Source of the DNA: Candidatus Anstonellales archaeon
GTDB taxonomy: Archaea > Micrarchaeota > Micrarchaeia > Anstonellales > J096
Direction: 5' to 3'
NCBI GenBank assembly: GCA_038890745.1
Contig: JAWAFD010000002.1
Coordinates: 128,001 to 192,000, forward strand
DNA length: 64,000 nt
The notes under the pieces are model-generated. The model worked only from the letters and a program-made list of their open reading frames with translations. It was not told the DNA's origin and made no database searches. Below, piece by piece: positions 5,636 to 35,805 of this stretch (its first letter is position 1; each line of letters starts with the position of its first letter). The translations under genes were made by a program, and so were the position numbers.

Positions 5636-5956
5636 ATGCATACGCTTGAAGCGGTTTTCTCTTTGATCGTGCTCGTTAGTTTTTCCATGATGCTTACGCT
5701 CGGTGCGGATGCACCCACAGACTACACTCTGTATCAGTATCAACTGGCTAACGATGTGTGGAGGGTTCTTTATCTTAAGCATGGGGTTGCCCTTCTTTAC
5801 AACCCTTCCATTGCTGCGGAGGACATGGAAAGGATAACGAGCGAGACAGGTTTGTGCATCCAATCTGATTTTTACACAACCTGCGAGGTTGAGGAAGGGA
5901 TAACGATTAAAAAACCAACCGTTCTTGGTAATGTTGAAATAAAGGTGGGTGTGTAG
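5636..5956 (+). CDS. Pilin-like protein
   Basis: MHTLEAVFSLIVLV: acidic residue at +5 then hydrophobic helix. Confidence 0.55.
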   Translation: MHTLEAVFSLIVLVSFSMMLTLGADAPTDYTLYQYQLANDVWRVLYLKHGVALLYNPSIAAEDMERITSETGLCIQSDFYTTCEVEEGITIKKPTVLGNVEIKVGV

Positions 5957-5957
5957 T

Positions 5958-7121
5958 ATGATTGCTAAAAGAACAGAATATGTTGAGTATGCAATAAGGG
6001 ATATAGTAATGGAGGCAAAGAAGCTTGAGAAAGAAGGAAAAAAGCTGCTGTACTTCAACATAGGCGACCCTGTCCCGTACGGTTTTTCTCCACCTGAGCA
6101 TGTCATGAAAGCCCTTTCCGAAGCAGCTTTAAATCCTAAAATAAAAGGGTATGCTCCCTCAAAAGGAGACCCAGAGCTTTTGAAAGCAGTTGCCGAGATG
6201 CACAAAACAGAGGAGGAGAATGTTTTCATAACAACAGGTTTAAGCGAGGCAATAGATTTCCTGTATTTTTCTCTAACAGAAAAAAGCGAGTACATCCTTC
6301 TTGAAGACCCGGCTTACCCGCTCTATCTTACAAAAGCAAGGGTTTACAGCAGGGGCCCTCTGCTCGCTGATTATACGAACGAGGATGATATTCGGAAAAA
6401 AATAAAAAACAAAAAAATAAAGGCAATTGTAATAATAAGCCCAAACAACCCAACGGGCCGGGTGTATACCGAGAAGGAGCTCAAAGTGTTGGTGGATATT
6501 GCGGGTGAGGTGAAGGCACCGATTTTTTACGATGGCGCTTATGATATGCTTTCCTTTGTCCCCCTTCCTGATTTCAAAAGGATTGCAAAGGATGTTCCGT
6601 TTATTTATGGGCAGAGCGTTTCAAAAAATTTCATCTTTCCAGGCGCGCGCGTTGGATGGGTTGTTTTTCACGGAGAACTTGGGAAGCTGAAAAACTCATT
6701 CGAAAAACTCTGCAACCAGAGACTTTCCATAAGCGCGGAAATGCAGAAGGCAGCTGTCGCAGCCGTAAGAGGGCCAAAGGACCATGTTGAAGAGTTTAAG
6801 AAGGAGCTTTTGAAAAGAAGGGATGCGATGGCAAGGGTTATTGAAGACAATCCGGTTCTTTCAGCAGAAAAACCAAACGGTGCATTTTATTATTGGATAA
6901 AGTTTGATGCAAAAATGGATGACTGGGAGTTTGTGAGAAAACTCATGAAAGAGGAGGGGATTGTTTCTGTTCCTGGCTCTGCGTTCGGCTCTTCAAAAAA
7001 GCATTTCCGTGTTGTTTATCTCCCAACGATGGAGCAGATAGAGGAGTTTGGAAGGAGGATGGAGAGGTTTGCTAACACGTTGGAACGACCCTCACCCAGA
7101 GGAGGCGAGAAAGTTGGGTGA
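5958..7121 (+). CDS. PLP-dependent aminotransferase class I/II
   Basis: FNIGDP, ISPNNPTG, DGAY, SVSKNF..PGARVGW, PNGAFY, VPGSAFG; the C-terminus and stop lie inside the 7073-7179 element. Confidence 0.92.
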   Translation: MIAKRTEYVEYAIRDIVMEAKKLEKEGKKLLYFNIGDPVPYGFSPPEHVMKALSEAALNPKIKGYAPSKGDPELLKAVAEMHKTEEENVFITTGLSEAIDFLYFSLTEKSEYILLEDPAYPLYLTKARVYSRGPLLADYTNEDDIRKKIKNKKIKAIVIISPNNPTGRVYTEKELKVLVDIAGEVKAPIFYDGAYDMLSFVPLPDFKRIAKDVPFIYGQSVSKNFIFPGARVGWVVFHGELGKLKNSFEKLCNQRLSISAEMQKAAVAAVRGPKDHVEEFKKELLKRRDAMARVIEDNPVLSAEKPNGAFYYWIKFDAKMDDWEFVRKLMKEEGIVSVPGSAFGSSKKHFRVVYLPTMEQIEEFGRRMERFANTLERPSPRGGEKVG

Positions 7122-7698
7122 GGGCTCTGGTGCGACCCGAAGATTAGATGGGTTGGGTCGCACTCGTTCCAACGTGTTACTCGTATTTAGGTTGGGCCAT
7201 CGGCTTCCTCGGGATGAAAGAATAAGCACGCATGTAGCCCTTGTTGCTCGCGCTTTCGGTGCTGATGGAATGTACTACTCAGGACAGGAGGATAAAGGGC
7301 TTGAGGAGAGCATTAGGAAAATTTGCGAAAAATGGGGAGGAAAATTTTTTGCAAAGTATGAGAAAAATCCAATTAAATTTTTGAAAAACGCAAAGAAAAA
7401 ATTTACTCTTGTTCATCTCACGATGTACGGAATGCCGGTGCAGAAAAAAATCGCAGAAATAAAAAAACAAAAAAACATAATGGTTATTGTTGGAAGCGAA
7501 AAGGTTCCATCCGAGATCTATACTATTGCGGATTATAATGTGGCGATAGGAAGCCAGCCGCATTCGGAAGTCGGAGCGCTTGCTGTTTTTTTGCATGAAT
7601 ACTTCGAGGGAAAGGAGCTGGAAAAAAATTTTGAGGGTGCGAAAATAGAAATAGAGCCGAGCGAAAGAGGGAAAAGGCTACGGAATTTTTTTGCCTAG
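7069..7698 (+). CDS. trm56: tRNA (cytidine56-2'-O)-methyltransferase aTrm56; start either TTG 7069 or GTG 7174
   Basis: FRLGHRLPRDERISTHVALVARAFGA, VHLTMYG, IVGSEKVP, GSQPHSEV. Confidence 0.92.
   Translation: MLTRWNDPHPEEARKLGEGSGATRRLDGLGRTRSNVLLVFRLGHRLPRDERISTHVALVARAFGADGMYYSGQEDKGLEESIRKICEKWGGKFFAKYEKNPIKFLKNAKKKFTLVHLTMYGMPVQKKIAEIKKQKNIMVIVGSEKVPSEIYTIADYNVAIGSQPHSEVGALAVFLHEYFEGKELEKNFEGAKIEIEPSERGKRLRNFFA
7073..7179. mobile_element. Palindromic MITE-like insertion (105 bp plus duplicated TA)
   Basis: Perfect 16-bp inverted repeat TAACACGTTGGAACGA (7073-7088)/TCGTTCCAACGTGTTA (7164-7179); inner hairpins CCCTCACCCA/TGGGTGAGGG and GTGCGACCC/GGGTCGCAC. Confidence 0.7.
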
Positions 7699-8940
7699 CA
7701 GCCATTTCCATAATGGGATAAAGGTTATTTTCCTTCTTGTTCCAAACCATTCGCTATCTTCTCTACCTTCGTAATCATCCGTAATGACGGTCAAGTTGTT
7801 GCATCTCGTTTCTTTGCTTGCTTTTACCAGCGCTCGAACCTCTCTCCTCTTAGTTTTAGCATCATCTATGCTGTAGCATACTTGTATCAATTGTCTAATC
7901 CTTGTTCCCTGCTTTAAAACGAAATCCACCTCCTCCTGCGAAGAGGATTTCCAGTAATACAAGTTGATTTTTCCGCTCAGCTCAAGTTTTTTCAGCTCAA
8001 TGGCTACAGCATTTTCGTAGAGCTTGCCCATATCCGGACTGAGCCTGAAGGCTTTGGCATGAATAAACCCGTTATCAACGCAATATATTTTTTTGTTTGA
8101 TCCAACCTGTTCTTTGACTTTAAATGAAAACCTTGGTATTTTGAACAAAACAAATGTCTCTTCAAGATAGTTTAGGTATTTTTCAACTGTATGAATACTT
8201 TTGCATCCTGTAACCTTTGCCAAAGTGCTGTATGAAAATTCATTGGCTATGTTTGAGATGAGATAAAGGGCAAGGTCGTCCATTCCTTCTATTGAGCGTA
8301 TCTTATATCTCTTTACCACATCTTTATATATTATAGAATCAAACAATGTGGAGAGATAGGTTTTGGTGTCAAGTTTATTTATGATGGGCTCTGGATAGCC
8401 GCCGTTTCTTATGTAAGAAAATAACCTTTCCTTGATTTCGCTTTTTGTCAACTCGCTCCTCTCCATTTTAATGTATTCATTAAAAGAGAACGGGAAAATA
8501 ACAAGCGCCAGATGCCTTCCGGTAAGATGGGTTGCTAGCTCTCTACTCAACAAGTTTGAGTTGCTCCCGGTGATCACCAGATTGTAACCCTGTCTTTGAA
8601 GCCTGTTGACAAACACCTCCCATCTATCTAGGTTTTGAATCTCATCAAAGAGTAGAAGGGTGGGGTTTTGGTATACTGTCTTCACTGCGTTTATTATATC
8701 ATCATAATTCTTAACATCCAAAAGCCTTTCATCATCAAAATTCACATACCCAAACCGCCCAAGCTTTGCGATACGATGGATGGCAAAGAATGATTTTCCT
8801 GCCCTTCGTGGGCCTATTATAACCTTTATCAGGTTGCTCGTCATTCCAGGTAGTTCTGTCTCTCTTTCAATATACCGTTCGGCAAGTTTGCTCTCAAGCT
8901 CTCTTTTTTGCAGCACCACGACATCCCGCAGATTTGGCAT
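7678..8940 (-). CDS. AAA+ ATP-binding protein (AAA_14 + DUF4143)
   Basis: GPRRAGKS, FDEIQN, ITGSNS, GGYP, KKIYCVDNG, EVDFV..QVC. Confidence 0.9.
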   Translation of the reverse strand: MPNLRDVVVLQKRELESKLAERYIERETELPGMTSNLIKVIIGPRRAGKSFFAIHRIAKLGRFGYVNFDDERLLDVKNYDDIINAVKTVYQNPTLLLFDEIQNLDRWEVFVNRLQRQGYNLVITGSNSNLLSRELATHLTGRHLALVIFPFSFNEYIKMERSELTKSEIKERLFSYIRNGGYPEPIINKLDTKTYLSTLFDSIIYKDVVKRYKIRSIEGMDDLALYLISNIANEFSYSTLAKVTGCKSIHTVEKYLNYLEETFVLFKIPRFSFKVKEQVGSNKKIYCVDNGFIHAKAFRLSPDMGKLYENAVAIELKKLELSGKINLYYWKSSSQEEVDFVLKQGTRIRQLIQVCYSIDDAKTKRREVRALVKASKETRCNNLTVITDDYEGREDSEWFGTRRKITFIPLWKWLLGKKIP

Positions 8941-9058
8941 ATTCCTATTTATAATGCACAAAAGTTTAAAAATTTTTGCATTTTAATGCAAAAATAACTG
9001 AAAAATCCCAATACCGGGCTACATTATTTAAAAACACTTTCCTTTTAACTTAGAGCGG

Positions 9059-13326: not shown

Positions 13327-13502
13327 TTTCCCTTCCACCCCCTATCTTATCAGGAGCCAAGGAGGGACTTAAGCATATTCTTATTCCCCCCTCACGCTTC
13401 TACCCCCCTATCTTATACTAGCAAAAATGAGGGGGGTTACGGAGGAGCCTCAAACCTAGGGGGGACACTTCCCCCCTGGGTTCGGGGGGTAGTAGAGTAA
13501 GG

Positions 13503-13583
13503 TGATGCGGTGAAACAAGTGCGACCCAAAAGTTTAGGTGGGTTGGGTCGCACCGAAGCCCTCTGGGTTGTTTCACCGCATCA
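13503..13583. mobile_element. 81-bp palindromic element, copy 1
   Basis: 16-bp IR TGATGCGGTGAAACAA/TTGTTTCACCGCATCA; inner GTGCGACCCAA/TTGGGTCGCAC hairpin; near-identical copy at 35260-35340. Confidence 0.8.
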
Positions 13584-13758
13584 GGGGGTCTGAGAAAAAG
13601 ATAAAGCACCCCCTAGTCTAGGGTTAGAAAAAGAAAGGGGGTAGTAGAGTAAGGGGGTCTGAGAAAAAGATAAAGCACCCCCTAGTCTAGGGTTAGAAAA
13701 AGAAAGGGGGTAGTAGAGTAAGGGGGTCTGAGAAAAAGATAAAGCACCCCCTAGTCTA
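13584..13758. repeat. 69-bp tandem repeat, about 2.5 copies
   Basis: GGGGGTCTGAGAAAAAGATAAAGCACCCC starts at 13584, 13653 and 13722. Confidence 0.9.
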
Positions 13759-13759
13759 A

Positions 13760-13882
13760 TGGACCCAGGGGGATTTCCAAACCCTTTTCCGCTAAAGCGC
13801 TTTTAGGCAGCCCAAAAAGGGCTTTTTGAACCCCCAGCCTCCCGAGTGCAAGTCGGGTGCTCTACCGTTGAGCTATAGGCCC
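13760..13882 (-). tRNA. tRNA-Ala(TGC) with 51-nt intron at position 59/60 (intron 13774-13824)
   Basis: GGGCCTA acceptor, GCTC/GAGC D arm, CCCGA-CTTGCAC-TCGGG anticodon arm; BHB GGGGG-TTCA-AAA / TGGA-AAT-CCCCC restores the T loop TTCAAAT. Confidence 0.93.
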
Positions 13883-30700: not shown

Positions 30701-32234
30701 AATAAACAGCCACATTATAGTCATATCCTTGGCCATTGCTTATGTTTTGAGAAACAAGAGTAAATGCTCTTGTTGTTGCATAGTTCTCCCAACCGCTCCA
30801 CTGCACCTGCGCGCTTGTCCAGTTCCAATAACCATACCTGCATTGCTCAGCATTTGTCGCAGAAAGCTGGAGCATCACGTTTGTTGAATTTGTCCATTGG
30901 TCATCATTGTTTATTCTAATAAAGTTCACATTGGGCGGATTTCCTCCTCCTCCACCGCCCCCTCCGCCTCCTCCTCCGCCTCCTCCTCCACCCCCTCCAC
31001 CACCTCCGCCACCCTGGGTGGCGTTTCTATACTCTATGGAGTCAGAGGCGGTTCCTATACTTTCAGAGTTTTTATCAATACATTCATAATAAACTGTTTT
31101 CATTCCAAACCCATCGCTCAGAGTCCATCCCCTTTCTGTTCTGTATGTTTCCCATCCAGTCCATGGAGAATTCTCATTCTTATATCTGCAAAGATGCGCG
31201 TCTGTTGCATAAAGATAAAGGGTAACATACTGGGATGTTGTGTAAGGATCATTATTGTTTATCGTTATTCTTATTATCCTCTCCTTCTCTTTCTCTTCTT
31301 CCTTTTCCTTTTCCTCTTTTCCCCCTGCTCCTGCATCATACCCAACGCTAGCCTCGTTCCCGGCAGAGTCAACACACCTAACAAGAACATACCCGGTTAT
31401 TGCATAGGATTTTCCGTTGCTTCCTATCTCCTCATTTTTGTAAACAATCTGGTCATTAGAATAAATATCGCATTTTGTTGGCGTCATATCCTCAACAAAA
31501 ACCTTTACTCCATTTGTTTCAGGCTCGAGTGTGATTGCTGGTGGGGTTCCATCATAAATAATACTATCGCTAACAACCTCGCTTTCAGATTCATTGTTCC
31601 TGCATTTTGCAAAAACAGTTTTTTCTCCATCCCCTTCTGAAAGCACCCAGTACATCATGCTGGAATATCTGTCCCATCCCCACCCTCCCTTTTCATTCCT
31701 GAATGCGCACTCACTAGCCTTTGTTGCACTTATGTACAGCACGACATTTCTATTGTTTGTGTACTCTCCATCCCCAATTTTGAAGCTCAGGATTTTTGGC
31801 GGGGATACGAAAATAACCTCAACCTTATTGCTCGGTCCGCTCTCCCTTTCTCCGATTACAGCAGTAACCCAGAATGTATAATTTCCATCCTCTTTTAGGC
31901 TATAGGTGTATGTTGTTCCTTCAACAAGAATTGGATTAACCTTCGCGCCGTTCATGTATACATTGTACCCTTCAACACCAGCAGTGGGAGAAGGCTCCCA
32001 TGAAAGAAGGATGTTCGTTCCTTCAGCAACAGCGGTTAGGTTTTTTGGCGGCTCTATCCCTACCAAGGTTGATGCAACAACAGCGCTTATCCCCCCAATA
32101 ATAAGCAAAATTGCAATCGCAGCCAAAATCAAAAGTATTCTATTGTCTTCTCCTAAATCCGGCCTAGCCGCAGGCCCTTCTCTAATAGGTGCGCTATACT
32201 CTGGCGCACTAGGAACTATATCCATAATGCTCAC
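27735..32234 (-). CDS. Large membrane-anchored fibronectin type III surface protein with poly-Gly linker
   Basis: N-terminal TM; PPKNLTA..LSW..GYNVY; repeated YRYRITAWD-type FN3 units alternating with C-R-Y...Y-Q-C-R-N units. Confidence 0.85.
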   Translation of the reverse strand: MSIMDIVPSAPEYSAPIREGPAARPDLGEDNRILLILAAIAILLIIGGISAVVASTLVGIEPPKNLTAVAEGTNILLSWEPSPTAGVEGYNVYMNGAKVNPILVEGTTYTYSLKEDGNYTFWVTAVIGERESGPSNKVEVIFVSPPKILSFKIGDGEYTNNRNVVLYISATKASECAFRNEKGGWGWDRYSSMMYWVLSEGDGEKTVFAKCRNNESESEVVSDSIIYDGTPPAITLEPETNGVKVFVEDMTPTKCDIYSNDQIVYKNEEIGSNGKSYAITGYVLVRCVDSAGNEASVGYDAGAGGKEEKEKEEEKEKERIIRITINNNDPYTTSQYVTLYLYATDAHLCRYKNENSPWTGWETYRTERGWTLSDGFGMKTVYYECIDKNSESIGTASDSIEYRNATQGGGGGGGGGGGGGGGGGGGGGGGGNPPNVNFIRINNDDQWTNSTNVMLQLSATNAEQCRYGYWNWTSAQVQWSGWENYATTRAFTLVSQNISNGQGYDYNVAVYYQCRNSYGTSGIISDVINYDGIPPWVENAVAVYNDPVINVNWNGGDVGSGIALYGIYRDVNESGTFDLVDWTTGTGYVDWNLTNDTNYTYLIYAVDLAQNSNYTISNTVYVENVSNTIPPENLTIEISDRNNGNLVWAGNAQSRIVNLTLYADLAQYCRYGWWNWTSGEIVWGAWVDYTPSDQTLLRGENVSTGRYQLDVPVFYQCSNPYGNSTIVNDTINYDGIDPVLENATANQTFNWIDVRWDAYDLESGISYYMYRIQKYTNGSAAELFYTYDNNLTDLNITTNTTYRYYISVWDDAFNQEDGWTNLVVVNNITYNITPENLTILISDRNTGNVVWAGNGTDQTVNLTLHADLAEECRYGYWDWNAGDITWYGGYGFGWVPYTTTYQVILMGESVGAGMNQSDVFVFYQCRNMAGESEIVNDTINFDGIPPAVENAAAIFNINPLRIDVDWDGSDAHSGMMRYAVLRSVNGSAYSQIATTADSNLTDMNISWNTTYQYLIVAYDNVLNSNSTYTNIVNVTNQTPTNLSILISDLDSGDTVWTNYETVQLTLHADSAQECRYGYWDSEQQIVVWSVDWEGYTASRTFVMDGYPALDPNVYGYEYNVPVYYQCRNAFGESEIVSDSINFDDEKPSGMPTIDPMIKMYPCYIEFSWPNSLDGGSGMNVYEISRWDDQTGAWTFLENRSAALERKYVDTNVQPGVVYRYRAVPFDVAGNAGMAWYSYYTSDSSIPKPLPPLRNVVINDGASIIADTWDSNLKVYSDLDQAVRVACECRVGNVKIPNNINWDNWQTVTTNPWIVNNWMLTLYSNIGPFQCEEGSARVAAQCRNLGGEGEIRYDEIKVDVAGPKFVIPYREAVYDSLLGVVNVTFAGAYDCASSVQFYRIERSTNGGPWEFLDDVSSGPYQDDTVSGGNTYRYRITAWDMYNHAGESLTTNEVSVSKSILLPPPEEVEPNEAGSGGKGKRIQLPPPEQVNPEGAGTGQKK
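30942..31013 (-). repeat. 24-codon poly-glycine tract
   Basis: GGN x24 with mixed third positions. Confidence 0.9.
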
Positions 32235-32351
32235 CCCAAAAACTTATCATGTTATTCAATTAGTTTATGTATGGTAACATTTAAAAATCCTTCTTTTACC
32301 GCTGATCGCCATAACAAAAGCTTATTAAATTGTTTTTCCCATCTCATGCAT

Positions 32352-33083
32352 ATGAAAGCAGAAATAAGAGATATTGAAGGGAAAAAATACCTTCTCCTTC
32401 CCAGTGAAATCTCATCGCAAGAGCTAGAAATATTCAAATTAAAAGATGGTTTCTACCTCCTTACATTTCCTCTTGAACAGCCGAAGAAAGAGCCGGAAGA
32501 AAAACTCTCAGAAGAGGAAAAACAGCTTCTCATAGACATATCCATGATAAGGTTTGAGCAGAGAACACTTGCGAATGTAAAGAAGATGCTTTCTAAGAAA
32601 CAGCTTGACCTGCTCAAGAGTCTGATAAAAAGAGGGTACGTAAGCATTTTTAAAAAGGGGAAGTACAAGGATGTTGGCGTGCTCAATTTTACTGATGAGG
32701 TTTTTGCAATGCTGAAAGAGGAGAAAAAGAAAATGCGGGAGAGCGCGGAAGCAAAAAAAGAAGAGAAGGAAAAGGCGCCGTACTCAGAAAAGCCGTTCTT
32801 TATTCTTAGCAAAGATAGGCAGAATGAGATTGGCGAATTCGTCGCTAAGGGATACTTAGCAGTTATCGGAATGGACAACAAAATATATGTTGCAAGGGCA
32901 AAGAATTTTTTGGCGCTTTCAAGCAAGATAAAAGAAGCGCTTAAACATGAGGAAAAAACCGTTGGTGAGATAGCAAGGGAGCTGGGCGAAGACAGCGAGG
33001 CAGTTGATGTTGTGCTGAAAATACTTTGGGCGCAAGGAGAGGTAATGGAAGCGAGAAAGGATGTTTTTGCATTGGTGGAATGA
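32352..33083 (+). CDS. Hypothetical protein with winged-helix-like segments
   Basis: LKSLIKRGYV; KTVGEIARELG...VLKILWAQGEV. Confidence 0.6.
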   Translation: MKAEIRDIEGKKYLLLPSEISSQELEIFKLKDGFYLLTFPLEQPKKEPEEKLSEEEKQLLIDISMIRFEQRTLANVKKMLSKKQLDLLKSLIKRGYVSIFKKGKYKDVGVLNFTDEVFAMLKEEKKKMRESAEAKKEEKEKAPYSEKPFFILSKDRQNEIGEFVAKGYLAVIGMDNKIYVARAKNFLALSSKIKEALKHEEKTVGEIARELGEDSEAVDVVLKILWAQGEVMEARKDVFALVE

Positions 33084-34150
33084 TGATAAAGGACAGCATA
33101 CATGGTTTTATAGAGATCAGCGATGAGGAAGAAAAAATAATAGACGTGCCGGAATTCCAGAGATTAAGGCATGTGAGGCAGCTCGCGCTGGCGCATCTTG
33201 TATACCCGGGCGCAAACCACACGCGGTTTGAGCATTCGCTCGGAACGATGCATATCGCAGGAAAGATTGCGGAAAACCTTGGTTTAGATGTGAGAAAGGC
33301 TCGTCTCCTTGGGCTCCTGCATGATCTAGGCCATGTTGCTTTCTCGCACGAGTCCGAGCGGGTTCTTTTGAAATACCTTGGCTCGCATGAGGAGATTGGA
33401 AGAAAAATAATAGAAAGCAGCGAGATTGGCGAGGTTGTTTTTTCAAACTACTCAAAAAAAGAATTTTTCTCGGGGCCAGAGATGGAAATAATAGACCATG
33501 ATCTAGGTGCTGATAGGTTGGATTATCTTAACAGGGACTCATACTATACTGGTGTAGCATACGGTGTTATAGACGAGGGAAGGATAGTTTCCATGCTTTC
33601 TCTTGATAAAAAAAACAAAAAAATTTATTTGGAGAGGGGAGGGCTTGAGGCAGCGGAATCCATGCTGATAGCAAGGTTCATGATGTTTTTCACTGTGTAT
33701 TTTCACAAAACAGTTAGGATTGCTTCCGCGATGCTCCAGAGAGCAATAGAGCAGTCCATCTCATCCGGCGAGGTTGAGCCGAAAGATTTTATGTACTGTT
33801 TTGATGATGAGATGCTTTTCCGGCTATCGCAAAAAAACGAGTTTGCTAAGCGCATCCTCCAAAGGAAGCTGTATAAACTTGCCTATGAACTTCCATTTTC
33901 AGAAGAAAACATAAAGTTCGCGGAGCAATTTGAATCTAAAACTATAATCATAGATCTCCCCTACTCAGTTTATAAACTAAAAGGATTTGATGTAGATTTC
34001 GAAGGTAAGAAAAAGAAGATTGATGAGTGTTCGGTTCTTGTAAAAGACCTGAAAGAGGCCGAGAAATCAAAGCTCAAAATTTTTATTATATGTGAAGAAA
34101 GCAAAAGAAAAAAGGTTGCGGAAGAAATCGAGAAAGCTCTTAGAAAATAA
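33080..34150 (+). CDS. HD-domain phosphohydrolase (dNTPase/SAMHD1-like)
   Basis: IKDSIHG, FQRLR..QL, HTRFEHSLG, LLHDLGH..FSH, ADRLDYL.RD, VYFHK. Confidence 0.92.
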   Translation: MMIKDSIHGFIEISDEEEKIIDVPEFQRLRHVRQLALAHLVYPGANHTRFEHSLGTMHIAGKIAENLGLDVRKARLLGLLHDLGHVAFSHESERVLLKYLGSHEEIGRKIIESSEIGEVVFSNYSKKEFFSGPEMEIIDHDLGADRLDYLNRDSYYTGVAYGVIDEGRIVSMLSLDKKNKKIYLERGGLEAAESMLIARFMMFFTVYFHKTVRIASAMLQRAIEQSISSGEVEPKDFMYCFDDEMLFRLSQKNEFAKRILQRKLYKLAYELPFSEENIKFAEQFESKTIIIDLPYSVYKLKGFDVDFEGKKKKIDECSVLVKDLKEAEKSKLKIFIICEESKRKKVAEEIEKALRK

Positions 34151-34166
34151 TATACAAAATAAATAC

Positions 34167-34334
34167 TTATCCGATAATATAGTGCGCAACCTGTACAATA
34201 ACTATGAGCGCTACTGTAAAAATAACAACCATCTGCGGAGTAATGTCTATTCCGCCGGTCCTCGAAGTCGGGCTTGTACCTATTATTCCCGCCATTGTTG
34301 TTGGCATCTGGATGCTCTGTCTCTTCCAGCTCAT
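34167..34334 (-). CDS. secG: Preprotein translocase subunit Sec61beta/SecG
   Basis: MPTTMAGII...GIDITPQMVVIF plus TM helix ending in H; 55 aa at the 3' end of ORF 34167-34799. Confidence 0.75.
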   Translation of the reverse strand: MSWKRQSIQMPTTMAGIIGTSPTSRTGGIDITPQMVVIFTVALIVIVQVAHYIIG

Positions 34335-34386
34335 GCTTTCATTTTGGAGCAAAAACATTAAAAAGGTTAGCGGGCAAAAATTCTTT

Positions 34387-35106
34387 ATGGATGTTGAGCT
34401 TGTTTTTTTAAAAGATCCTTCCAGATTGGGGCTAAAAAACCCAGTTCTTATCACAGGTTTTCCGGGTGCAGGACTTGTTGGAAGCATAGCAACAACCTTC
34501 CTTACTATGGGAAATGGGTTTGAGCTTATCGGGTATGGAAAAAGCGAAGGGTTTGCCCCTATCGCGGCTATACACGAATACAGGCCTTTACCTCCATTGA
34601 GAATCCTTGCATCAAAACAGCTAAACGCGGTTGTTCTTCTTTCAGAAATGACTATTCCGGTTTCCCTTAATTCAGCGATTGCAGAGAGAATAATGGAGCT
34701 CGCTGATAGAATAAAAGCAGGAATGGTGGTTTCGCTCGGTGGAATAACCTTAGGCGAGAAAGAGGATGTTGTGTATTTCATCGCCTCAACACCATCCATG
34801 GCAAGGCTTGCCCTTTCAAAAAAAGTTGGTGAGCCGATAAAGGAAGGCGCAACAACCGGTGTAACCGGTGTTCTTCTTTACTCCTCCTTTATAAAGGAGG
34901 TCGATACGATTGCGCTTCTTGCAGAGGCAAACCCAGACCTTAGCGATCCTAAAGCAAGCAGCAATGTTCTTAAGGCCCTTCAAAAGCTTCTTGGTGTGGA
35001 GATAGACACACGGGCACTTGATAAAGAGGCTAAAGAGATTGCAGAAGCGCTAAAAGAAAAGATTGTGAAATCCAAGGTCCCGGTAAAATCTTCAATGTAC
35101 GGATAG
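34387..35106 (+). CDS. Proteasome assembly chaperone PAC2 family
   Basis: LITGFPGAGLVGSIA, SLGGI, GVTGVLL, DPKAS, C-terminal MYG (HbYX). Confidence 0.9.
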   Translation: MDVELVFLKDPSRLGLKNPVLITGFPGAGLVGSIATTFLTMGNGFELIGYGKSEGFAPIAAIHEYRPLPPLRILASKQLNAVVLLSEMTIPVSLNSAIAERIMELADRIKAGMVVSLGGITLGEKEDVVYFIASTPSMARLALSKKVGEPIKEGATTGVTGVLLYSSFIKEVDTIALLAEANPDLSDPKASSNVLKALQKLLGVEIDTRALDKEAKEIAEALKEKIVKSKVPVKSSMYG

Positions 35107-35152
35107 GGTAGATTTTTAATCTGTTTTGTTTTCTAATTAAATTTGTTTACTC

Positions 35153-35407
35153 GCAGGGGTCGCCAAGCCCGGTCAAAGGCGCACGGTTGAGGGCCGTGTC
35201 TCTTAGTGGGTTCGTGGGTTCAAAAGCCCAGGGGGGCTTTAACTCTTTGTCATCCCCCCTGATGCGGTGAAACAAGTGCGACCCAAAAGTTTAGGAGGGT
35301 TGGGTCGCACCGAAGCCCTCCGGGTTGTTTCACCGCATCACGCTTCCACCCCCTATCTGTTTAGGATGTTTTGGAGGGTGGTTTGGCTGAAAATCCCACC
35401 CCCTGCA
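35153..35407 (+). tRNA. tRNA-Leu(GAG) with 169-nt intron at position 59/60 (intron 35225-35393)
   Basis: GCAGGGG/CCCCTGC acceptor, CACGG-TTGAGGG-CCGTG anticodon arm, long variable arm; canonical BHB GTGGG-TTCA-AAA-GCC / GGC-TGAA-AAT-CCCAC. Confidence 0.93.
35260..35340. mobile_element. 81-bp palindromic element, copy 2, inside the tRNA-Leu intron
   Basis: Matches 13503-13583 with 2 substitutions. Confidence 0.8.
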
Positions 35408-35760
35408 TTAGACTAGGGGGTACTATTGCTTATCGCAGACCCCCTTACTCTACTACCCCCTTTCTTTTTCTAACCTCCTTGCTCCTAATAAGATAGGGGG
35501 TGGAAGAGGCAGGGGGTTTTAGAAATGCTTAAGTACCCCCTGGTCTCCCTTACTCTACTACCCCCCGAACCCAGGGGGGAAGTGTCCCCCCTAGGTTTGA
35601 GGCTCCTCCGTAACCCCCCTCATTTTTGCTCGTATAAGATAGGGGGGTAGAAGCGTGAGGGGGGAATAAGAATATGCTTAAGTCCCCCCTTGGCTCCTGA
35701 TAAGATAGGGGGTGGAAGAGGCAGGGGGTCTAAGAAATAGTTTAAGTACCCCCTGGTCTC
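35408..35760 (+). repeat. tRNA-Leu 3' trailer of G/C-run modules, with internal direct repeat (about 35481-35547 and 35693-35760)
   Basis: Same modules as the tRNA-Ala trailer. Confidence 0.85.
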
Positions 35761-35805
35761 ATGCAAATTTAAAAATCCTTTATACCATATTTTTTTGGTG
35801 GTTTG

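Follow-up and report, generated by a model that had tools for sequence, protein, structure and literature searches.

The 64,000-nt stretch of DNA analyzed here (the window) carries three members of a dispersed, gene-less family of small palindromic elements found in Micrarchaeota of the order Anstonellales. The family has a conserved pairing scheme, has been gained at a new site, occurs in frame within genes and nested within itself, sits in both orientations, and shows an excess of short direct repeats at its borders. Every copy follows the same predicted Y-shaped plan, in which a 16-bp arm, hairpin A, a 5-nt linker, hairpin B, and the returning arm form a three-way junction. The hairpin loops are approximately 17–19 nt, conserved in length and free in sequence, and most copies are 81–110 nt long. 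The source genome (Ca. Anstonellales, Micrarchaeota; 990 kb in 5 contigs, 94% complete) is designated G000, its congeners are G001 and G002, and other G numbers denote further genomes of the order.

The longest window element is a full-length copy of 107 nt (7073–7179, plus strand) with arm strands at 7073–7088 and 7164–7179, hairpin A at 7089–7124 with an 18-nt loop, the 5-nt linker at 7125–7129, and hairpin B at 7130–7163 with a 16-nt loop that is inverted relative to the 81-bp copies; these sub-coordinates were assigned by eye. The other two are 81 nt long and lie on the minus strand. One (13503–13583) has arm strands at 13503–13518 and 13568–13583, hairpin B at 13519–13553, the linker at 13554–13558, and a hairpin A reduced to a 3-bp stub (13559–13567), and it is bordered by a 2-nt GG/CC direct repeat. 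The other (35260–35340) has the opposite orientation to the copies that occupy the sister introns of tRNA-Arg(TCT), -Leu(TAG), and -Ser(GCT). Each is bounded by a perfect terminal inverted repeat of 16 bp, and the positions and lengths are those given in the first-pass annotation. All six strands of the three elements have folding z-scores between −8 and −10, and the core pattern proposed in that annotation matches three times in the window and not once in 100 shuffles.

The genomic contexts are likewise as annotated: an overlap of two genes, a tRNA trailer, and a tRNA intron. A class I/II aminotransferase gene (5949–7121, plus strand), whose stop codon now falls within the 7073 element, overlaps trm56 (7069–7698, plus strand), which encodes the tRNA C56 2′-O-methyltransferase. 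The 13503 copy lies in the trailer (13340–13759, minus strand) of tRNA-Ala(TGC) (13760–13882, minus strand), a gene with a 51-nt bulge–helix–bulge (BHB) intron at 59/60 (approximately 13774–13824, limits by eye). The 35260 copy resides in the 169-nt intron (35225–35393, also at 59/60, BHB by eye) of a tRNA-Leu(GAG) gene that ARAGORN and Rfam missed (35153–35407, plus strand); in congener G002, the same tRNA has a different intron at the same position. The tRNA-Ala trailer is composed of repeated G-run/C-run hairpin modules, and the tRNA-Leu trailer (35408–35765, plus strand) has the same modules without an element, that is, empty sites. These modules, with loops of approximately 20 nt, are a second repeat system that builds tRNA trailers and intron bodies in both G000 and G002.

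The clearest gain of a copy is that at 7073. In each of the two congeners, the aminotransferase gene directly overlaps trm56 in an arrangement 105 nt shorter than in G000, and a contig from the conspecific sequencing run X4, which differs from the window at 33 positions over approximately 1,590 nt, skips exactly 7070–7174, again 105 nt. Runs X1–X3 of the same study span the stretch without such a joint; X1 and X2 may be where the window DNA comes from. On this comparison of alleles, the 7073 copy is identified as a true insertion, and the existence of empty sites that had been anticipated is thereby confirmed. The X4 allele may be a pre-insertion state or the product of a later slippage deletion, as two letters fit on either side; its length is ancestral either way. 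The insertion replaces two bases (by eye), adds a net 105 nt, and keeps the trm56 frame; six or seven bases at the site are those at which the 105-nt type of the element sits in G002. The aminotransferase C-terminus acquires 15 new residues in place of the last 3 residues of the congeners. For trm56, initiation at the ancestral TTG (7069) would lengthen the gene by 35 codons, while a candidate GTG at 7174, within the right arm, would restore the ancestral length. Adjoining trm56 is an AAA_14 + DUF4143 ATPase gene (7678–8961), inside which runs X3 and X4 depart from the window at 7998, and thus the locus differs between strains.

Insertion into coding sequence recurs elsewhere in the order. G060 carries an 86-nt copy in frame inside its adenylate kinase gene, and a 29-residue element-encoded peptide is present in 3 of 11 aligned adenylate kinases (drawn from at least 120) and absent from the other 8. 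Two of these proteins have the peptide three codons upstream of its position in the third, which suggests that in-frame insertion took place twice independently, as judged for the two relatives at the protein level. Copies also overlap the 5′ ends of predicted open reading frames for topoisomerase I, Nre, and a VTT protein. In G028, the linkers and arms of older elements have taken in younger ones, with up to three levels of nesting. Copies of either orientation are found at one and the same host site in G000 (35260 versus the sister introns), G002, and G028. At one G002 locus (L233, contig C37, 1501–2066), an element lies at the center of an inverted duplication of the start of a transporter gene; the duplication is likely a two-strain assembly chimera, since its arms are 94% identical and differ mostly at third positions.

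The suggestion of one dispersed, non-autonomous family with further copies is borne out by 15 full copies in G000, fourteen of 81 nt and one of 107 nt, plus a degenerate copy on contig 3. Thirteen of the 81-bp copies, all of which have hairpin A shrunk to a stub, are associated with tRNA genes and have two or three types of junction: seven are distributed over five T-loop introns of tRNAs, five over four tRNA trailers, and one lies upstream of a tRNA. The fourteenth is at a contig end. Three pairs form tandem dimers, and the dimer-junction pattern matches 4 times. The 7073 copy is a mosaic whose arms and hairpin A stem resemble the 105-nt type, of which G002 has six copies, and whose hairpin B resembles the 81-nt type. 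A solo arm of the 81-nt type ends one tRNA trailer (contig C1 of G000, approximately 142110–142127). The anticodon intron of tRNA-Leu(TAG) on the same contig (approximately 313765–313880) has two hairpins with element-like loops and neither arms nor linker. Contig C3 also holds a 4.7-kb highly repetitive block (30867–35532) with a self-match depth of up to 60.

Two covariance models delimit the family across the order. Model 1, built from 18 copies, has matches in 6 of 141 genomes, and model 2, built from 15 more diverse copies, in at least 9 of 141 (G000, G002, G028, G040, G058, G060, G106, G125, and G140). G002 harbors 8 full and 2 truncated copies. G028 has at least 25 matches, often nested, with 28 of 313 first-look candidates scored, and it is dense in further, unrelated palindromic repeat families that host Y elements (L355, L376, L379, L387, and L403). 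The G058 copy, on a 2.3-kb contig, differs very little from one in G002 and could be a binning error. The model found no element in congener G001 (82% complete). A phylum-wide sample gave matches in 5 of 151 genomes, all already known, and in 0 of 101 genomes of families f13–f24; 61 haloarchaeal genomes, possibly not including Haloquadratum, gave none. The Rfam scan returned no covariance-model match at gathering score, in line with the expectation of an undescribed family. In a metagenome scan with the left half of one subtype, the 49 loci are made up of small elements and truncated copies together with one hybrid and one probable chance match, and none is a copy enclosing a gene. Two whole-element patterns had no match in viral sequences. 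Ten arms without a near partner, followed up as possible ends of an autonomous copy, can each be traced to a contig end, to nesting, or to a 1-nt deletion. One loop of the G002 elements matches 11–13 nt around the start codon of a small family of hypothetical genes (L261, L265, and L308; contig C3 of G000, 150–300), which lie beside the repeats.

What is conserved in these elements is pairing rather than sequence. Double-sided changes occur in 22 of 32 pairs and cover all three helices, and 95% of alignment cells are paired compared with 35–42% in slid controls, counts to which the model-building sequences contribute matches by construction and which kinship inflates. RNAalifold recovers the same Y fold unaided, and the invariant letters (29 rows) concentrate at the junction. 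The terminal repeats had been called unrelated between the two lengths; they are in fact homologous, being identical at 10 of 16 positions, five of the six differences are transitions, and 8 of 16 arm pairs have changed on both sides in an 18-row alignment. Of the 768 arm pairs in 48 distinct but related, non-independent elements, 719 are Watson–Crick; wobbles number 25 on one strand and 18 on the opposite one, and 6 pairs are mismatched in other ways. An A-to-G change that keeps pairing only as G–U had been taken as a sign of an RNA strand, an argument that fails because wobbles are about equally frequent on both strands. A resemblance to hammerhead ribozymes or attC sites was dropped by eye, as there is no catalytic core geometry and the end words vary.

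The first-pass annotation had also aligned a shared core on the same strand of all three elements and read the inner hairpin as a recognition signal. The core is indeed present at 7130–7163, 13519–13553, and 35276–35310, while its same-strand alignment does not hold: by architecture, the 81-bp copies match the 7073 copy in reverse, and the latter bears the same loop inverted. The loop alignment scores 16.7 reversed versus 6.5 forward, with 99.9% of shuffles below 11.7. The sequence of the inner hairpin is not the signal, as its stem and its loop are both free to vary across the family and subtypes have exchanged arms and hairpins. The related view that this is not a plain terminal-inverted-repeat site survives in part, in that inner structure matters more than in such an element, although the inner hairpin is not the constant part. 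Nor does the core mark the family. At least 115 genome loci and 7 viral loci match it, including unrelated bacteria without the fold, and the model applied to 87 of these 122 loci gives weak matches in 3, all without the architecture; the core is thus not diagnostic. In one Patescibacteria genome (L135 and L152), a different short palindromic repeat shares the core by chance or distant kinship.

The junctions with host DNA carry short repeats of more than one size. In G000, 9 + 8 occurrences of the trailer host module are empty and 4 + 2 contain an 81-nt element, and filling adds two bases that make a CC/GG repeat. A 2-nt direct repeat is present at 10 of 26 junction sites, against a permuted mean of 2.7 and with none of 20,000 permutations as high; seven of the ten are GG/CC. 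These 26 rows hold one entry per subtype and site, with near-duplicates dropped by hand, and 15 of them, likewise chosen by hand, come from the G028 population. A 1-nt direct repeat occurs at 17 of the 26 sites, a raw count outside the permutation test. The junctions fall into a +2 class (the 81-bp type), a +1 class (adenylate kinase and the tandem dimers), a −1 class, and a −2 class (7073). The −1 class, comprising five nested G028 sites and the G002 intron type, has one base replaced, as judged by eye against intact partner arms and linkers. To go by these border letters, most unstructured sites look like short staggered cuts that obey no single rule.

No mobilizing gene has emerged from profile searches in which all positive controls matched. 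G000–G002 have no match to Y1_Tnp, DDE_3, IS110 DEDD, tyrosine recombinase, reverse transcriptase (RT), resolvase, or rve profiles. Y1, IS110, and tyrosine recombinase profiles also have no match in G003 and G004, nor RT in G003, and DDE_Tnp_1 is absent from all five genomes tested, G000 and G002 among them. The lack of any Pfam Phage_integrase match in G000–G004 extends even to Xer-like proteins, although all 14 controls matched. Y1 genes occur in 3 of 9 element genomes versus 38 of 141 overall and rve genes in 3 of 9 versus 22 of 141, so there is no clear link between either and the element, and the related genomes are not independent. Tyrosine recombinases are present in 4 of 5 tested element genomes and in neither G028 nor G000–G004. 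IS607 serine transposases use a GG core, an idea raised by the GG repeats and set aside because the resolvase family is found in 0 of 9 element genomes (7 of 141 overall) and because the elements have terminal inverted repeats. Among 41 transposase, recombinase, or RT loci and ten Y1 and IS630 loci (best loci only), there is no model match, and the scanned ends of IS630, IS110, rve, Y1, and serine and tyrosine recombinase loci lack the arm motif. A search for a mobilizer gene flanked by the same hairpin had been proposed, and the nearest approach among the transposase loci examined is a nested element cluster in G028 approximately 100 bp beyond an rve gene and not at that gene's ends. G028 also has 14 Y1 matches, a multi-copy IS200-type gene, and an intact 400-aa IS110 recombinase gene without element arms (L462, contig C63). 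The loops, considered as guides or captured spacers, match their own flanks or end junction no better than swapped ones (lowest p 0.013 in 56 uncorrected tests).

The reading favored here, with slightly less than even confidence, is that the Y element is a gene-less insert mobilized in trans by an enzyme that comes from outside, reads the arms and the three-way junction, and makes a short-stagger cut. An enzyme supplied from elsewhere would recognize both 16-bp arms together with the junction and cut the target with a 1–2-base stagger; given that none of the families tested is present in G000, it would arrive with a virus or some other mobile element. This enzyme is postulated, since neither a mobilizer nor a gene-carrying copy was found. 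Most of the 14 81-bp copies in G000 would descend from one or two insertions and have subsequently been copied with tRNA introns and trailer modules, and loop flips and hybrids would arise by recombination or template switching between palindromic stems. The exact empty modules of the 81-bp type within the same genome support this scheme. Palindrome-perfecting template switches can, for their part, yield Watson–Crick covariation without selection on the fold. One DDE transposase normally leaves one duplication size, and the varying junction size counts against a mechanism with one such enzyme; the patchy distribution of the element, with no copy in the 82%-complete G001, also weighs against the scheme. 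A broader and rather doubtful version holds that the Y element represents a class of minimal mobile DNA defined by shape, whose three-way junction would be read by a host- or virus-encoded enzyme outside the known transposase families, and which would form nested arrays, add peptides to core enzymes, and provide the bulk of lineage-specific DPANN tRNA introns.

The first-pass annotation had named REP/HUH-like or RNA-based mobilizers, for which there is little support: Y1/RAYT, IS630, IS110, and RT genes were not found in G000. Movement as REP/PATE-like single-stranded DNA by an IS200/IS605-type (HUH, Y1) enzyme, with hairpin binding and a four-base guide, is unlikely. The guide–target pairing rule of IS608 underlies a predicted C at −3, which is present at 5 of 5 independent G028 sites with a known empty state and fits the guide before hairpin B (by eye), and the nested G028 inserts lack duplications, as such a mechanism would have it. 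The same rule fails at most sites outside G028. G028 does combine the most elements with 14 Y1 matches, and in the 81/103-nt subtype of G000 and G002 (other subtypes differ), the linker, hairpin A, and following bases resemble by eye the right ends of IS200-type genes in G028 and G106; against this stand the Y1 distribution given above, with none in G000–G002, and the excess of 1–2-nt direct repeats, as IS200/IS605 elements are described as lacking terminal repeats and larger duplications in the part of PMC2817692 drawn on here. No examined Y1 locus is flanked by an element, whereas RAYT genes always are, according to the same part of that source (PMC2817692). Host processes with no dedicated enzyme (replication slippage, template switching, gene conversion, and microhomology repair acting on hairpin DNA) could account for the ragged junction sizes, the loop inversion, flips, hybrids, and tandem dimers, the lack of a mobilizer in G000, and the fact that most local copies ride in repeated tRNA modules. 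Such an origin is nevertheless quite unlikely, given the insertions into unique coding DNA without flanking homology (7073 and, twice, adenylate kinase); in addition, three families of the order share an arm of exactly 16 bp, a linker of 5 nt, and invariant letters at the junction, which would be hard to keep without a reading partner.

Two further rivals assign the structure an RNA role. The bridge RNA of IS110 elements has guide loops for target and donor. Two loops of fixed length and free sequence, 2-nt junction repeats, a preference for palindromic targets, and inversion in place would suit a mini-element of the IS110/IS1111 kind, its loops guiding a 2-bp-core recombinase to target and donor, and G028 does encode one IS110 protein. 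That gene lacks element arms, however, and none was found in G000–G004; with the loops failing to prefer their own flanks and loop A deleted in the most numerous G000 subtype, the proposal is improbable. Still less probable is a structured RNA that moves via splicing or reverse transcription, like the host tRNA introns. Half of the 81-bp copies (7 of 14) do sit in T-loop BHB introns, and such introns are gained, lost, and swapped between congeners. Against an RNA carrier, both orientations occur within transcripts and there is no wobble bias, and the fact that both strands fold alike counts the same way. Moreover, no BHB can be drawn (by eye) around the 7073 copy, the coding insertions are in frame as if translated, and G000–G003 lack RT.

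Compared with described systems, Y elements are most like small mobile repeats (SMRs), MITEs, and Rickettsia palindromic elements (RPEs), yet differ in a defining feature from each family that permits a test. The SMR-A repeats of Haloquadratum are also archaeal, approximately 110 (or 80) bp long, with terminal inverted repeats unrelated to known transposons; they likewise insert into other palindromic elements and have no assigned mobilizer (sections of PMC3119063). According to the same sections, SMRs differ in having no target duplication, which Y elements lack at nested sites only, and in being >95% identical within a type, and no three-way junction like that of the Y element is described there for them (PMC3119063). 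The comparison with SMR-A, including HqIRS42/43/55, is by description. Classical MITEs (ERIC, RUP, Correia, and Sulfolobus SM1–4) are similarly short and gene-less, with terminal repeats, short flanking repeats, a stable fold, and nesting (as covered in the relevant part of PMC10969869). Y elements have the terminal inverted repeats of at least 10 bp and the lack of transposase coding capacity by which MITEs are defined. They depart from MITEs in that the duplication has no fixed size or word, the arms change in sequence but stay paired, no cognate transposon sharing their ends was found, and the interior geometry is conserved across highly diverged subtypes. RPEs share the addition of in-frame peptides to housekeeping proteins by palindromic inserts; by comparison with their description in that part of PMC10969869, Y elements are shorter (mostly 81–110 nt), archaeal, and mostly located in intergenic or tRNA loci. 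REP/BIME/REPIN sequences with RAYT, and PATEs, are also modular palindromes with compensatory changes and clusters (portions of PMC2817692 and PMC3119063). The GT(A/G)G head of REPs precedes hairpin B in 1 of 60 rows of Y elements, and no Y1 gene is flanked. PATEs lack the true 16-bp terminal repeats of Y elements, which also have the short-repeat excess, insofar as these portions of PMC2817692 and PMC3119063 describe them. An archaeal IS survey set MITE-like elements aside (in the part of PMC13343696 used here). No description of the family was found in the open-access literature, while the supplementary sets of the Haloquadratum paper and of a MITE census (PMC11602168; 18,091 archaeal MITEs) may hold some members.

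Palindromic repeats that lack a transposase, SMRs and RPEs for example, have for many years posed the question of how they move. The family described here has a defined fold, alleles with and without the insert in a single species, junctions by the dozen, and nested series that preserve the sequence of events, which makes the question testable by breaking and restoring stems. Short of an enzyme, it is a well-described repeat family rather than a new mechanism. It is also a source of new protein segments in streamlined genomes and supplies some of the sequence in the rapidly changing tRNA introns of Micrarchaeota. Those host introns, located at 59/60, belong to a known kind, the non-canonical BHB introns of ARMAN-2 (in the portion of PMC3239211 consulted), and the Y element is cargo inside them rather than the intron, with no BHB at its own ends (by eye). 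The route by which such tRNA introns arrive is still called open for Asgard archaea (in the part of 10.64898/2026.10.13.758758 drawn on here). Throughout G000, many tRNA genes have T-loop (59/60) BHB introns that fall into approximately three sequence families across isotypes, and the orthologous tRNAs of G002 lack those introns or have a different intron family. In addition, tRNA 3′ halves are tandemly repeated downstream of tRNA genes in G000 (contig C1, approximately 179300–179800 and 252088–252550; contig C2, 313720–314089), separated by hairpin modules, an arrangement reminiscent of the remains of small integrated elements.
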